Positions 27,869-52,178 of a stretch of 64,000 nucleotides of DNA are shown here, in pieces; position 1 is the stretch's first letter, and every line of letters begins with the position of its first letter. Under the pieces are notes generated by a model. The model saw only the letters and a program-made list of their open reading frames with translations, did no database searches and was not told the DNA's origin. A program made the position numbers and the translations under genes. This stretch comes from Nitrospirota bacterium (GTDB lineage: Bacteria > Nitrospirota > Thermodesulfovibrionia > Thermodesulfovibrionales > SM23-35), in contig JBFMCL010000008.1 of the NCBI GenBank assembly GCA_040754395.1, positions 50,823 to 114,822 of the forward strand, given 5' to 3'.

Positions 27869-29464
27869 TTATTGGTACCATTCGATCCTGTTGTACGGGA
27901 CCTTCCAGTGGATGAAGTCATGCCAGATTCCGATCGGAGCTTTTTCCACACCCCTGAACCTCTTGTGAAGGACGGGAAGCGCGTCAGGTACATACAGGAA
28001 GGTATAAGGCTGGTCGTCTGAGAGGATTTCATGAATCCTGTGATAAATCTCCTTTCTCTTGCCGAGATCAAATACCCTCCTTCCTTCGAGCAGGAGCCTG
28101 TCCACCTCTTCGTTCCTGTATGAGACAAAGTTGAACTCGCCTTCCCGTGTTTTCGAGGAATGCCATATGTCGAACATGTCCGGGTCGCGTGACAGCGCCC
28201 ATCCCATGATCACCGCCTCAAAACGTTTTTTGTCGATAAATTCATGCAGCATGGCCTGCCACTCGAGCACCTTGATATTCATGCGGATGCCGATAATCCT
28301 GAGGTTTTCTTTGATGATCTGGGCGGTTTTGAGTCTTGCCTCATTCCCCTGATTTATCAGGACTGTGAATTCAAATGGTTTTCCGTTCTTTTCGAGCAGG
28401 CCATTCCGTCCCATTTTCCAGCCGGCCTCCTGTAACAGATTCACTGCCGCTTCAGGATCGTATGCAAGGTCTTTTACCTCAGGGTTATATGCCCATGATT
28501 CCGGGGGAAAGGGGCCTGTACAGGGGGTGCCGTATCCAAGAAGCACCCCTGCGATGATATCTCCTTTGTTTATTGCGTGGGTGATCGCCTGCCTGACCCT
28601 CCTGTCGGAAAACCTTGGGTCGAGCAGGTTGTATCCCAAATAGGTATATCCGAAAGAGGGATATCTGAATTTCTGAAAATATTTATTGAAGAATTCGGTG
28701 TCCGCCTGAAGCTTGTATTGAGGTGGCGTCAGCCCCATGAAATCTATGCCGCCGAATTTGAGTTCGAGGAACATCGTTGCGGTATCAGGGATGACCCTTG
28801 CAATGTACCTTGCGATATTCGCTTTTCCCTCGAAATAGCGGTCAAACGCTTCAAGTACGATTTTCTGGCCGGTAACCCATTCCTTTAACCTGTAAGGGCC
28901 TGTTCCTACAGGGTTTCTGCTGAATACCTCATTTGTGATATCTTTGCCTTCAAGCAGATGTTTAGGGATTATTCCCATCCCCCATGATTCGAGGGCAGGT
29001 GCATAAGGTTCCTTATAAAGGACTTTTACCGTATATCGGTCAATTACCTCAACCCGCTGAACCGGGCCGAAATTACTGCTGTAGGGTGTCGGGATCCGGG
29101 GGTCGATGACGGTATTATAGGTGAAGAGCACATCGTCGGCCGAGAATTCGGCTCCGTCATGCCACAGGACTCCCTTCCGCAGATGGAAGACAATCTGCAG
29201 GCCATCTGGCGAGACGTCCCATGATTCAGCAAGATCCCCTGTTATTTTGATGTTCCTGTCATATTTGGTGAGCCCGTTATAGATCCAGCCGCTTATGTCT
29301 CCGGAGGCACTGTCGGATGCAAGAAGCGGCAGCAGCCGTTTCGCATCTGCGAGGGAGCCTAATGTAATCGCGTCAGGTTTCTTAATTTCAGGTTCCCGGG
29401 TGCAGGAAAAAGAGGAGAGTATCAGGAGCAGAAAGAGCAAAAATACGGGGGAAAATTTTTTCAC
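27869..29464 (-). CDS. Peptide ABC transporter substrate-binding lipoprotein (family 5)
   Basis: Lipobox FSC; GDLAESW, WHDG, PVGTGPY, VRQAI; start uncertain (GTG 29464 or 29470). Confidence 0.9.
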   Translation of the reverse strand: MKKFSPVFLLFLLLILSSFSCTREPEIKKPDAITLGSLADAKRLLPLLASDSASGDISGWIYNGLTKYDRNIKITGDLAESWDVSPDGLQIVFHLRKGVLWHDGAEFSADDVLFTYNTVIDPRIPTPYSSNFGPVQRVEVIDRYTVKVLYKEPYAPALESWGMGIIPKHLLEGKDITNEVFSRNPVGTGPYRLKEWVTGQKIVLEAFDRYFEGKANIARYIARVIPDTATMFLELKFGGIDFMGLTPPQYKLQADTEFFNKYFQKFRYPSFGYTYLGYNLLDPRFSDRRVRQAITHAINKGDIIAGVLLGYGTPCTGPFPPESWAYNPEVKDLAYDPEAAVNLLQEAGWKMGRNGLLEKNGKPFEFTVLINQGNEARLKTAQIIKENLRIIGIRMNIKVLEWQAMLHEFIDKKRFEAVIMGWALSRDPDMFDIWHSSKTREGEFNFVSYRNEEVDRLLLEGRRVFDLGKRKEIYHRIHEILSDDQPYTFLYVPDALPVLHKRFRGVEKAPIGIWHDFIHWKVPYNRIEWYQ

Positions 29465-29571
29465 ATGCACTTCATCCCGTACCTCTCCGCGTGTATTTCT
29501 GAAACATCTGAACTCCAATCAGCGGGCAAAAGCCAGCAGGCTTTGTCGTCCTTCTTTCGGCGAAGGGGATT

Positions 29572-29706
29572 TCAGCATTTTTTCTCAGGAGTCTCCGACC
29601 CCTTTTTTTTCGGTATTCATGTCGAGACCCCCAGTTTGGGGAACACGAAAAACATCAGGACAATCCATACCACCAGGATAATCAGACCTGTGATCCAGTC
29701 GTTCAA
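29572..29706 (-). CDS. Putative 44-aa single-TM selenoprotein (MNDWITGLIILVVWIVLMFFVFPKLGVST-U-IPKKKGSETPEKKC)
   Basis: AAGGAGG RBS, TTG start at 29706, hydrophobic helix, in-frame TGA at 29617-29619 followed by a SECIS-like hairpin; not in the ORF track. Confidence 0.7.
29587..29603 (-). promoter_or_regulatory. Putative bacterial SECIS element of the small selenoprotein
   Basis: AGGGGUC-GGA-GACUCCU hairpin; apical loop starts 20 nt after the UGA. Confidence 0.65.
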
Positions 29707-29732
29707 TAGTACCTCCTTTGGTAAAGCACGTC

Positions 29733-30500
29733 TTATTTCCTGTCAATAAACGCCTTTAAAGCCTGTGCGTCCAGAAACCCGGCGACTACACGTCCGTCTG
29801 GCATTATCATGGTGGGAGCGCCGGTAATCCCGAGTTTTGCGGCGAGCTTTATATTGTCATCCACCACGGAAGTCTTGCATTTTGGCGCCGGGATCTGCTT
29901 TTTCTCAAATGCCTTCTCGAGCAGCTCGAGCGAATTCTCACATACGATCGCCTTTGCCTTATCATATGCAGCCGGATGCATCCTGAGAGGAAACATCTTT
30001 ATATAAAAGGCGATGTCTTTTCTTTCCCTGACTACCTTCTTCATCTCCTGATGAAGTTTCGCACAGTGAGGTCAGTCAGGATCATCAAACACAATAACCT
30101 TGTTTTTCGCGCTTTGTAACCCCACCACAAGCGCGTCTTTCAGAGGGATCTGGGAGGCGTTGACCTTTTTTATTTCAGCGAGACGCTCCCGCGTCAGATT
30201 CCTCTGTCCCTGGACTGTCAGGAGAGAGCCTGAAAACAGGTGTTTTTTGGGGAGATCCACATAGATTATCCCCTTTTTCCCCTGTGAGTCCACGCCGACT
30301 TCCCAGAGATATTTCACAGGGCCGGGGTTTACGCTCATCACCTTGATGTTCTGATCCAGATTTTTCATGATAGCAGCGGCTTCCTCTTTCTTCAGGGAGT
30401 GACATTTGTGACAGTCCTGTCCCTTCGAGGAGAAGGCCGGGAGATCATTGGCCGAAAACAGGAAAAGGACAGCACACACGAGAAAAAATGCCCTTCGCAT
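29733..30500 (-). CDS. DsbC-family thiol:disulfide oxidoreductase selenoprotein (UPHC active site, N-terminal CxxCH), 255 aa
   Basis: Track ORFs 30072-30545 and 29733-30044 are one frame joined across TGA 30072-30074 (VFDDPD-U-PHCAKLH); cis-Pro loop GITGAPT; signal peptide; AGGAGG RBS. Confidence 0.9.
30039..30056 (-). promoter_or_regulatory. Putative bacterial SECIS element of the DsbC-like gene
   Basis: CUUCAUC-AGGA-GAUGAAG perfect 7-bp stem; loop 22 nt after the UGA. Confidence 0.75.
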
Positions 30501-30576
30501 TGTTCTACCTCCTGTATATCTGATATTACCATAAAAGGAATTCATATGCGTATCACATTAATGGTAATATATTTTC

Positions 30577-49399: not shown

Positions 49400-50386
49400 A
49401 TGCTGGCGGTGGGTATTTTTTTCGTCATGTCGCTCTGGATGATATTTCCCATGGCGCATGCAAACAGTGGGGCTGTTAATCCGACTGCGCAGCTTACAAT
49501 ATCCGAGGTATTGGTTGACTTCGAGGACGGCATTATTTACATCAGGGGATCAAATTTTAAAAACGGAACTCGTCCGAATGTGCTGCTGGGCAAGGATACG
49601 GTTCCGCTTTCCGTTATCGGGACCCCCACAGCCAGTGTAATTATGGCCGTCCTGCCACCGGTACCTGACGGGGATTATGTACTGAAGGTTTCTACGGGGT
49701 ATACATCATATCAGAACGATGCCTACGATCTGACAATTGGAGCAGTAGGGCCACAGGGACCCCAGGGAGAAAAGGGAGATACAGGACCACAGGGGGAAAA
49801 GGGTGACACCGGCGCGACCGGAGCAACAGGGGCGACAGGACCACAGGGGAAAACAGGCCCTTTGGGCCCAGCGGGACCGAAAGGCGATACGGGAGATCCG
49901 GGCAAGACGTACACCGGCAGCAGCCCGGTTTCTGTGAACAACACCCTGAACACCATCGGGCTTAACGCTGCCATACAAGCCGGAGATTTAATGACCTGGG
50001 ACGGTAACAACTGGGTAGCGCAACAGCCTGCTGTCCAGCGTTTTACTCTCAGTAACATGCAGCCCTATACGACGGTGAGTTTCCAGATAGCGTTGGTGGG
50101 CTTATACCCAACGAGAAATGGCATAGACCCTTTCATAGGTGAAATCATGATGACCGGATTTAATTTTGCAACGAGAGGATGGGCTTTATGTAACGGACAA
50201 TTGCTCTCGATAGCAGAAAACAGTGCATTATTTTCCCTCCTGGGAACAACCTATGGAGGAGACGGGAGAACCACGTTTGCACTCCCTGACCTCCGCGGCA
50301 GGGTGCCTGTGCATTTTGGTCAGGGGCCTGGACTTTCAAATTATCGAATAGGACAAAGTGGAGGTTCGGAGACGATTTCCCGGTAA
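49400..50386 (+). CDS. Secreted collagen-repeat protein with C-terminal phage tail-collar (MdpB-like) domain
   Basis: Signal peptide ending AHA; G-X-Y run; [41 protein letters not shown]. Confidence 0.85.
49739..49909 (+). repeat. Collagen-like repeat, 19 G-X-Y triplets
   Basis: [24 protein letters not shown]...GDPGKT. Confidence 0.9.
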
Positions 50387-50456
50387 GAGAGGGAACGTTT
50401 GACAGAGCAGCCTTTTATCAGCAAGAAGGCTTCTCCGGATATAATGAAGCGCTGGA

Positions 50457-52178
50457 ATGATAAAAACTCACGCTGACAGGTTTCTTCTTTTTTTTCTTCT
50501 TGCTGTTGGTGTATTGTTTTTTGGGGTCGGCCGGACATGTGCGGAGCCTTCCACAGACCGGGACTGGTTTCTTGCCGCGGTCAATGCACCGAGTGACATG
50601 AAACCGGCTAAGGGGAAAAAGAAGATCGTTGTCGCTATTGTCGATGACGGAGTGAGAATCACCCATCAGGATTTGAAGGGTTTCATCTGGACAAATCCGA
50701 GAGAGATTCCCGGAAACAATATTGACGACGACGGCAACGGGTTTGTGGACGATGTCCATGGATGGGATGTTTCTGACAACAGGAATTCGGTTATTCCCCC
50801 GAAGGGAAGGCTTCAGGAGTATTATCACGGGACGCACCTTGCGGGCATTATCGCGCGTATCGCCCGCAATGCATATGGCGATGCCGCAACGGACTTCATA
50901 CGGATCATGCCGGTAAAAAGCCTCTCTGACAAGGCTGACAAGCCTTATATCAGGGACGGTTACAAGGGGATCGAATATGCGGTGAAATCAGGGGCTGATA
51001 TTGTCCTCTGCGCGTGGGGGGCAGGACAGATTTCCCCTGATGAAGAGAAGATTCTTGAGAACGCCCGGAAACACGGCGTCCTTATTGTGGCTTCCGTAGG
51101 CAATTTCCCGGAGGAACGGGAACAGTTCCCTGCCGCCCACGGCGGTGTTCTGGGTGTTGCTGCAATAGGGCAGGATAAGAAGAAGATAGAAAAATCGAAT
51201 TTTGGTGCATTCATCGATCTGTCCGGGCCGGGAGTGAACATATGGAGTTCCAGTGTACTATCCGACTCCGGATACGAGCAAAGGGACGGTTCTTCTTCCG
51301 CGGCTGCAATAGTTGCCGCTGCCGCGGCAATTGTGCAGCGCCAGCATCCGTCATATTCTGCCGAAAAAATAACTGCCTGTTTGAAAAGCTCGGCGGATGG
51401 CATTCACGTAGAAGACGTCCAGTACAGCGCAAAGCTTGGCGCAGGGGCATTGAATATCAGCGCAGCGGCTGTATGCAGGCTCTTTCATCAAAAGACACCG
51501 AAAGTCAGCACACTCGACAATCCACAGGGGTATCTGCATTTTCACAATTCCGGGGAAAAGCTTTCATCCTGGACGATCAAACCGCAGGGCGTTTTCAGGG
51601 GGATCAGGTTCAGCCTTCTTTCATTGCAGGGCAAGCCGGGCAAAGGAATGGTGAGTTTTTATTCGGGAGATTTGTCTGAAAAGAAATTGCTTGCACGGTA
51701 TCCTCTGTCTCGTCTTCCTGAAGATGTCTATGTGCCGGGAACGATCGCATCTGTGACTTTTGAAACTGCACTGCCTGACAGAAAACTCAGCTGGCTCATG
51801 GAGTACCACGCGGAACCGATCAAATTCAGCACGTTATACTGCAGCGGAACAGTCCATGTCGCTGAAGAAGGAATATTGGAAGACGGAAGCGGTCCTGAGA
51901 ATTACTCTCCCAAAAGCGACTGCAAGTGGCTTGTCACTGCTCCGGAAGGGAACGTTATCCATTTCACGTTCACTGAATTTGATACTGAGGCCAGGACCGA
52001 CCTGCTGTATTTTTTTCACGGAGCGGGAACCCATGAAAAAATCATGGCAATCTTTAGCGGTCCGGGCATTCCGCAGGAACTCACTACCTGGAGCAACCAG
52101 GTTCTGGTATGGTTTGTCGCTGACGGCAAAAACCAGGGGAAAGGCTGGAAAGCGGAAATCCGCTTTAAGGAGCCGTAA
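50457..52178 (+). CDS. S8 (subtilisin-like) peptidase with C-terminal CUB domain
   Basis: VAIVDDG, DDDGNGFVDD, HGTHLAG, SVGN, DGSSSAA; CUB-like YSPKSDCKW..FTEFDTE. Confidence 0.85.
   Translation: MIKTHADRFLLFFLLAVGVLFFGVGRTCAEPSTDRDWFLAAVNAPSDMKPAKGKKKIVVAIVDDGVRITHQDLKGFIWTNPREIPGNNIDDDGNGFVDDVHGWDVSDNRNSVIPPKGRLQEYYHGTHLAGIIARIARNAYGDAATDFIRIMPVKSLSDKADKPYIRDGYKGIEYAVKSGADIVLCAWGAGQISPDEEKILENARKHGVLIVASVGNFPEEREQFPAAHGGVLGVAAIGQDKKKIEKSNFGAFIDLSGPGVNIWSSSVLSDSGYEQRDGSSSAAAIVAAAAAIVQRQHPSYSAEKITACLKSSADGIHVEDVQYSAKLGAGALNISAAAVCRLFHQKTPKVSTLDNPQGYLHFHNSGEKLSSWTIKPQGVFRGIRFSLLSLQGKPGKGMVSFYSGDLSEKKLLARYPLSRLPEDVYVPGTIASVTFETALPDRKLSWLMEYHAEPIKFSTLYCSGTVHVAEEGILEDGSGPENYSPKSDCKWLVTAPEGNVIHFTFTEFDTEARTDLLYFFHGAGTHEKIMAIFSGPGIPQELTTWSNQVLVWFVADGKNQGKGWKAEIRFKEP

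Follow-up and report, generated by a model that had tools for sequence, protein, structure and literature searches.

A 44-codon gene with an in-frame UGA lies behind a dsbC-like gene

The window analyzed here, a stretch of 64,000 nucleotides from a Nitrospirota genome, carries a candidate micro-selenoprotein gene that lies entirely on the minus strand, reading from 29706 to 29572; the plus strand gives nothing similar. Reading TGA as selenocysteine (U) on this strand reproduced the 44-residue frame described in the first-pass annotation, with its TTG start, U30 and terminal C44. The AAGGAGG ribosome-binding site and the 26-nt gap between the stop codon of the DsbC-like gene and the TTG were both confirmed in the sequence, and the hairpin AGGGGUC-GGA-GACUCCU, with its loop 20 nt past the UGA, was located at 29603-29587. 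The gene is present in a single copy in the genome and carries the motif FPKLGVST-U with a Cys at U+14. Purine-rich stretches precede the start codon in its relatives as well. Promoter and terminator scans returned counts at chance level. The features of the locus are as follows.

29572..29706, minus strand: candidate micro-selenoprotein gene, 44 codons, TTG start, in-frame TGA at codon 30, TGA stop
29712..29718, minus strand: ribosome-binding site AAGGAGG, 5 nt ahead of the TTG
29641..29697, minus strand: single transmembrane helix predicted from hydropathy, residues 4-22
29617..29619, minus strand: UGA, likely Sec30, closing the family motif W-x8-P-[KR]-[LMF]-G-[VI]-x-T-U
29587..29603, minus strand: hairpin of bacterial SECIS (bSECIS) type, AGGGGUC-GGA-GACUCCU, loop 20 nt past the UGA
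29575..29577, minus strand: Cys44, likely resolving cysteine; a tail Cys is found in 41 of 45 close homologs
29733..30545, minus strand: upstream DsbC/DsbG-like gene, a single ORF if the TGA at 30074-30072 is Sec (UPHC active-site motif)
30039..30056, minus strand: bSECIS-type hairpin of the dsbC-like gene, loop 22 nt past its UGA
27869..29518, minus strand: downstream family-5 solute-binding protein gene, adjoining in some close relatives only and outside the feature

The DsbC/DsbG-like gene is split in the annotation at the TGA at 30074-30072, and reading this codon as Sec completes a UPHC motif. The UPxC form is kept in all ten relatives that share the gene order of the dsbC-like and micro-selenoprotein genes. 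DsbG-like and thiol:disulfide interchange selenoproteins are catalogued kinds. The DsbC-like gene is itself a UPHC selenoprotein candidate, likely on the same transcript as the micro-selenoprotein gene, and because its TGA yields UPHC and is followed by a hairpin of its own, the locus likely holds two selenoprotein genes in tandem. Judging by its N-terminal hydrophobic stretch, the DsbC-like protein is presumably periplasmic, which makes a direct partnership with a cytoplasmic tail of the smaller protein unlikely.

The in-frame UGA is very likely a selenocysteine codon

Two observations had been named in the first-pass annotation as speaking against selenocysteine, a genome lacking the Sec machinery and homologs ending in TAA or TAG at the site, and neither was found. 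The genome (99.96% complete) carries a tRNA-Sec with a TCA anticodon (selC) together with selA, selB and selD above cut-offs, and its selD itself has an in-frame TGA and a hairpin. Among carriers within the same phylum, 59 of 60 have selA and the remaining one has selB. Of 50 carriers picked for the most part from outside Desulfobacterota and Nitrospirota, 47 gave a selA match; selB is above cut-off in two of the others, and the third has a contig-edge fragment. As a separate observation, Rfam gave a second tRNA-Sec match above cut-off in this genome (58.5 bits, C16:80860-80959), the true tRNA-Sec being on contig C1. ARAGORN found only one TCA tRNA in the genome, and the second match is probably another long-arm tRNA.

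The first relatives comprised 30 loci from 61 related genomes, all with TGA at codon 30-32 and with tails of 13-24 codons ending in TGA (16), TAA (9) or TAG (5). A wider scan used the degenerate DNA pattern W-x8-P-[KR]-[LMFI]-G-[VI]-x-x followed by any TRN codon; it covered 4 of 64 parts of 185,579 species genomes and returned at least 120 loci, 119 of them true homologs and one an unrelated chance match. With a pattern permitting TAA, TAG, TAY and TGN at the aligned site, TGA was found there in 119 of 119 homologs and TAA or TAG in none. TGA also stood at the site in all 45 non-redundant close loci.

Coding-type constraint is present after the UGA. The next in-frame stop is mixed among the 119 homologs (TGA 64, TAG 29, TAA 26), and the in-frame tail stays open for 13 codons in every one of them, as compared with 79 and 69 for the other two frames. 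A Cys occurs within 20 codons in 110 homologs in frame, versus 46 and 15 in the other frames. Tails open for at least 13 codons were seen in 45 of 45 close homologs but after only 312 of 546 ordinary TGA stops of this genome. In 29 close tails of equal length, third codon positions are the most variable, and the last four tail codons show 475 synonymous versus 111 non-synonymous single-base differences, counted over pairs among kin that are not independent. Beyond the Cys, the distal tail is nearly unconserved in the wider family (10% identity). The homolog test proposed at the outset, for TGA or Cys at position 30 with coding conservation beyond it, thus yielded TGA, Cys orthologs (described below) and codon-type constraint.

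Several other readings of the UGA were weighed. Genome-wide UGA reassignment was rejected, since TGA ends 547 of 1396 long ORFs here. Stop-start coupling through TGA-ATG was rejected because Met follows the UGA in only 52 of 119 homologs, with A, G, T, Q, S or F in 29, and in none of the 45 close tails. If the UGA were an ordinary stop, the product would be a 29-residue membrane peptide and the hairpin a conserved RNA element. Such a reading would agree with the databases, which carry the gene as a 29-residue hypothetical protein, with TGA being the commonest stop in the genome (the same 547 of 1396 long ORFs) and with a weak fold at the single locus, but it leaves unexplained the absence of TAA and TAG in 119 homologs, the Cys orthologs that read on through the site, the codon-type constraint and frame-specific Cys past the UGA, and the UGA-to-loop-motif distances of 16, 19 or 22 nt, which differ by whole codons. 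We regard it as very improbable. The invariance of the UGA, the open frame, the hairpin, the Cys orthologs and the Sec machinery together make Sec decoding very likely.

A bSECIS-type hairpin is conserved downstream of the UGA

In a 45-nt segment, the hairpin folds at -8.8 kcal/mol with a z score of -2.24 (6 of 200 shuffles were equally good); a 60-nt segment gave a z score of -0.26 and a different fold. The hairpin owes its significance to conservation and is modest when judged alone. Across 30 relatives, 82.8% of stem cells pair compared with 67.0% after shuffling, the stem having been drawn from the same sequences. Two-sided stem changes numbered 30 against 6.6 in shuffled alignments, a level reached in 0 of 500 shuffles and by none of the slid controls, each of which was lower, and they fell at five of the six stem pairs. 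The distance from the UGA to the loop motif is 16, 19 or 22 nt across the 45 non-redundant close loci.

We scanned for bSECIS elements with our own script of the published consensus model (PMC13188914, section 5). As set out in that section, the model calls for a loop of 3-9 nt with a G in its first two bases, a stem of at least 4 bp, a distance of 16-37 nt from the UGA and about -7.5 kcal/mol or lower (PMC13188914). The hairpin at this locus agrees with the model on every point. With a cut-off of -3 kcal/mol, 113 of 119 homologs have a model hairpin, compared with 29 of 119 true stops and 32.6% of shuffled sequences; a cut-off of -5 kcal/mol leaves 101 of 119 homologs, 18 of 119 true stops and 18.9% of the shuffled sequences. 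Among the close loci, 38 of 45 have one. The earlier proposal of a Sec-encoding UGA with a bSECIS is therefore supported by TGA in 119 of 119 homologs, model hairpins in 113 of 119 and stem covariation. SelB would read the hairpin and insert Sec at the UGA.

The family spans many phyla and includes cysteine orthologs

When 301 genomes of the phylum were searched with a profile built from the 30 relatives, 60 proved to carry the gene with a single internal TGA; two weak matches (E about 1e-4) have no stop and lie outside the 60. The close homologs are labelled Nitrospirota or Nitrospirae. The profile found no match in any of 11 selA-positive genomes of one family (f11, genus g36), most sister families of which carry the gene, and this absence likely reflects lineage loss or divergence beyond the profile. 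In a distant selA-positive family, the same profile gave one weak match in 64 genomes.

From the pattern scan, we estimate that about 2,500 genome stretches match. Wider members occur in Desulfobacterota, Planctomycetota, Acidobacteriota, Chloroflexia, Myxococcota, Spirochaetes, Armatimonadota, Gemmatimonadota, KSB1 and Zixibacteria, and cultured carriers are found in Geobacterales (Geomobilimonas luticola, Pelotalea chapellei and Geobacter sp. OR-1). Searching 301 Planctomycetota genomes with a wider profile gave at least 29 matches, a lower bound because only 22 candidates were scored per genome, and 28 of these were true and one spurious. Of the true loci, 25 have TGA at the site and three have Cys (TGC or TGT). 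The TGA genomes include 24 with selA and one with selB and selD, against a Planctomycetota background of 218 in 301 with selA. In the three Cys genomes, searches for selA, selB above cut-off, selD and tRNA-Sec gave no match; the tRNA-Sec search overlooks real cases, since one TGA carrier (G433) also went unmatched. Each of the three Cys copies has a second Cys at +5, and a model hairpin was found in none of them at -5 kcal/mol and in one at -3 kcal/mol. The three genomes may be kin to one another.

Searches of protein databases retrieved 344 proteins among the best matches listed. The first-pass annotation had expected gene callers to truncate the product to 29 residues, and 266 of these proteins do end exactly before the site. 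Another 52 have Cys there, 48 of them with a second Cys at +5. The remainder have W (16), G (3) or another residue (5) at the site or are without the motif (2), and the W and G proteins are likely gene calls made under other code tables. Every named protein among the 344 is called "hypothetical protein." A search for longer proteins gave two matches in which the family stretch is C-terminal to an unrelated N-terminal extension, which is weak evidence of fusion, and the ESM Atlas offered as a lead one 56-residue Planctomycetota cluster at 0.87.

The protein has a single predicted membrane helix and a mobile second cysteine

The first-pass annotation had also proposed one helix and a Lys-rich, likely cytoplasmic tail, and hydropathy and charge asymmetry agree in predicting both. 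The hydrophobic 19-mer at residues 4-22 has a mean Kyte-Doolittle value of 2.82. The C side has more Lys and Arg than the N end does in every one of the 30 first relatives and in 88 of 90 aligned members of the family, and the N end is acidic, with a mean of 0.3 K/R and about one D/E in six residues. By the positive-inside rule, the basic flank of a helix lies on the cytoplasmic side. Because the C side is basic, the tail is predicted to be cytoplasmic and the topology is likely N-out/C-in. The Sec sits eight residues after the predicted helix, and W14, P23, G26 and U30 are invariant in the 90-member alignment, W, P and G being fixed by the search pattern; with this spacing, the Sec would stand at a fixed distance from the membrane surface.

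Of 45 close homologs, 41 have a Cys somewhere in the tail, with TGC and TGT both in use, and in 22 it is the C-terminal residue. Among the wider members, its usual place is U+5 (85 of 119; TGC 57, TGT 28). No tail Cys is present in 4 of 45 close and 5 of 119 wider members. From these distributions, we conclude that the second Cys is selected whereas its position is mobile, as would be expected of a resolving Cys in a flexible tail more than of a fixed metal site. Of the earlier suggestion that Sec30 and Cys44 form a redox pair, the tail Cys held up (41 of 45), the U+14 spacing proved to be a lineage variant, and the pairing itself is putative. Since one profile covers both Cys forms, the U+14 Cys marks this gene, by its sequence, as a short-tail, terminal-Cys variant of the wider family.

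Two other assignments were examined. A lipobox has the form [LVI][ASTVI][GAS]C directly after the h-region and is preceded by a basic n-region. The Sec was rejected as the +1 residue of a lipoprotein, given an acidic N end, Thr at position -1 in at least 90% of members and P-K/R between the helix and the site. Nor does the protein group with the thioredoxin-fold UxxC/CxxU proteins, being 44 residues long, with Cys at U+3 in 0 of 119 homologs.

Gene neighborhoods point to thiol and sulfane-sulfur chemistry

We compared the neighbors of the gene at 80 loci from named genomes, using 148 of 159 called neighbors after leaving out 11 duplicates of rplQ and similar genes. The categories, which were picked after seeing the matches, were rhodanese, DUF442-like, DUF302, YgaP-like, thioredoxin-fold, CcdA, DsrE, YeeE/YedE, C-GCAxxG-C-C, pyridine nucleotide-disulfide reductase and ArsR/CsoR. 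A gene of one of these categories adjoins 27 of the 80 loci, while 53 have no such neighbor; none of 55 control ORFs from the window, a single window of one genome, matches these categories. In Planctomycetota, such neighbors occur at 10 of 27 loci, all three Cys forms included, and YgaP-like genes adjoin four. Two of the Cys forms have a rhodanese-domain gene on one side and a type III SQR-like gene on the other, and sqr-pdo-rhodanese operons are described as handling sulfane sulfur (PMC9163753). The neighbors point to thiol/sulfane-sulfur redox chemistry.

In its own lineage, the gene follows rplQ at 21 of 45 loci, as judged by motif with one rplQ-position ORF confirmed as L17, a UPxC dsbC-like gene at 10, and secG, as we presume from the upstream sequences, at five. 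The 26 copies that follow rplQ or secG are uninformative on sulfur. In 31 of 45 loci, the distance between the upstream stop and the start codon is in the range of -8 to +5 nt, which, with the position behind rplQ, secG or dsbC, suggests constitutive expression.

The reading we favor, with a probability of about 0.6, is that the protein acts as a membrane-tethered Sec-Cys thiol/sulfane-sulfur redox switch or sulfur carrier, because its second Cys is mobile yet selected and its neighbors are of sulfur type. In this mechanism, one helix would hold Sec30 of the 44-residue protein close to the membrane on its cytoplasmic side. A membrane-associated disulfide, persulfide or polysulfide would be attacked by the selenolate. 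The second Cys, which is at U+5 in most members and at U+14 in this one, would then resolve the adduct to a selenylsulfide, and reduction by a thioredoxin-type system would complete the cycle. Translational coupling could provide constitutive production where the gene lies behind rplQ, secG or dsbC.

As an alternative, a soft metal or metalloid could be bound by Sec and Cys, or the peptide could serve as a selenium sink, with no catalytic redox cycle. Of 80 loci, 8 adjoin an ArsR/SmtB or CsoR regulator and one adjoins an SO_0444-family Cu/Zn efflux gene; the two ArsR proteins tested pass the general metalloregulator model only. Some Cys forms also have CC or an extra Cys. Two ligands at spacings of 5 to more than 14, with no conserved His or third Cys, speak against a metal site, rhodanese, SQR-like, YeeE and DUF302 neighbors are non-metal genes, and a selenium sink would not persist as a Cys form in genomes without Sec machinery. 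We therefore consider this alternative unlikely.

A SELENOS-like role, that is, a membrane-anchored redox loop for membrane-protein biogenesis or translation rather than sulfur traffic, is suggested by the positions after rplQ, dsbC and secG (21, 10 and 5 of 45) and, once, after an ORF that looks to encode an FKBP-type isomerase, as well as by the closeness of the start to the upstream stop in 31 of 45. The resemblance extends to a single helix, a poorly conserved cytoplasmic tail and a Sec-Cys spacing of 14 residues: SELENOS has a proposed Cys174-Sec188 selenosulfide (PMC3628699), equal in spacing to U30-C44 and reverse in order, and its redox loop has been tied to translation and membrane-protein insertion (PMC13524514). 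SELENOS differs in having 189 residues, a penultimate Sec and a SECIS in the 3'UTR, whereas here Sec precedes Cys and the hairpin lies within the ORF, a hairpin arrangement whose criteria are shared with other bacterial selenoprotein genes that have an in-ORF SECIS. Pfam and PDB searches gave no sequence link to SELENOS or SELENOK, and the Sec is at residue 30 of 44. Moreover, the ribosomal context is gone outside the lineage, where sulfur/redox neighbors recur, and a position at the end of a strong operon may supply expression only. On balance, we give a SELENOS-like role little credence in place of the redox switch or sulfur carrier. SELENOK likewise has one helix and a cytoplasmic tail of low conservation.

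Somewhat less doubtful, and still tentative, is a view that joins the two: the protein could be a minimal Sec/Cys membrane loop, a counterpart of the SELENOS/SELENOK design, carrying sulfane sulfur or selenium at the membrane in many phyla and encoded in this lineage by a constitutively expressed housekeeping gene that closes the ribosomal-protein operon.

Other neighbors were noted in passing. Several members (L107, L130, L138) are flanked by genes for hybrid-cluster protein, YgbA_NO and rubrerythrin, a hint that nitrosative or oxidative stress may be a further context. In Desulfobacterales and Planctomycetota, the gene repeatedly has an ECF sigma factor or zf-HC2 anti-sigma gene next to it (L109, L119, L142, L197, L206), and the peptide may belong to an ECF regulon that senses redox state. 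In a Rokubacteria member, the upstream gene (L106:1301-1783) matches only the first part of TIGR02187, a protein disulfide oxidoreductase and known selenoprotein family, and may have been cut at a UGA.

The family was listed in 2008 and is absent from the catalogues checked

The first-pass annotation did not recognise a characterised family. The family is indeed uncharacterised, but it is already in print as a predicted selenoprotein family under the name "Unknown" (PMC2398784). Table 2 of Zhang and Gladyshev (2008) lists it with 15 mostly partial reads from nine samples and no Cys homologs, among the "previously described" families and with neither domain nor motif given (PMC2398784). The available sections of that paper hold no discussion of its function (PMC2398784). 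By eye, 14 of the 15 Dataset S1 sequences have a hydrophobic stretch and P-x-[LM]-G-[VI]-x-T-U, with single-residue read variants, and by this shared sequence pattern our gene belongs to the family. Most Dataset S1 entries have a Cys at U+5 or U+6, a trait that the gene, with Cys at U+14, does not share. A 2007 paper on Olavius refers to candidates without Cys homologs predicted earlier by bSECISearch (PMC1976440), and a bSECISearch prediction of 2005 may be the origin of the first listing.

Later sources yielded no trace of the family in the parts available. Table 1 of a 2026 review, with 119 entries, has no recognisable entry for it (PMC13188914), the word "unknown" is absent from the tables of a 2022 review (PMC9312934), and the available main text of the deep-Sep, BSepDB and 2005 and 2006 Genome Biology papers gives no description. 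A full-text search with six family 6-mers, which does not extend to supplements such as the one holding the 2008 listing, returned nothing relevant. This gene had no match beyond noise in Pfam or NCBIfam, and searches of Pfam, NCBIfam and PDB with 90 members gave noise only. What is new here is the Cys orthologs in genomes without Sec machinery matches, the breadth of the family, its gene context and the evidence of coding constraint in the tail, together with the short-tail variant that is often found directly behind rplQ, dsbC or secG.

Most bacterial families in the available part of the 2026 catalogue are soluble thioredoxin-fold or metalloenzyme proteins with UxxC/CxxU, unlike this one (PMC13188914). 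Because the family dropped out of the catalogues and family libraries checked after the 2008 prediction, an estimated 2,500 genome stretches in Desulfobacterota, Nitrospirota, Planctomycetota, Acidobacteriota and other groups likely hold copies that present selenoproteome tallies leave out. The Sec/Cys pairs supply the standard evidence that was absent from that prediction. The family may tentatively be counted among the most widespread of bacterial selenoproteins, concealed in databases as a "hypothetical" peptide of 29 residues. With 44 residues and a single helix, such a selenoprotein is also small enough for synthesis and assay, and the family would allow a direct test of the role of selenium at bacterial membranes and of the SELENOS/SELENOK design in bacteria.

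We also compared the family with the YgaP-like transmembrane family (PF11127, formerly DUF2892), some members of which end in LG[IV][SN]TC, similar to LG[VI]xT-U here. PF11127 differs in its length of about 65 residues, its longer hydrophobic region and its invariant C-P. Homology was not supported, as profile-profile comparison gave probabilities of only 12% and 6% over 10-16 columns and PF11127 was absent from the 25 families shown for the 90 members. PF11127 has no match in this genome, and a term search of the available text of the 2026 review found neither YgaP nor DUF2892 named (PMC13188914). As an observation in its own right, an in-frame TGA takes the place of the invariant C-P Cys, accompanied in each case by a bSECIS-type hairpin, in 7 of 25 PF11127 copies taken from 41 related genomes (L229, L230, L231, L233, L238, L239, L240). 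Elsewhere in the window, at 49400-52175 on the plus strand and unrelated to the micro-selenoprotein, a collagen-repeat/phage tail-collar/TIG protein is encoded beside a subtilase-CUB protein.
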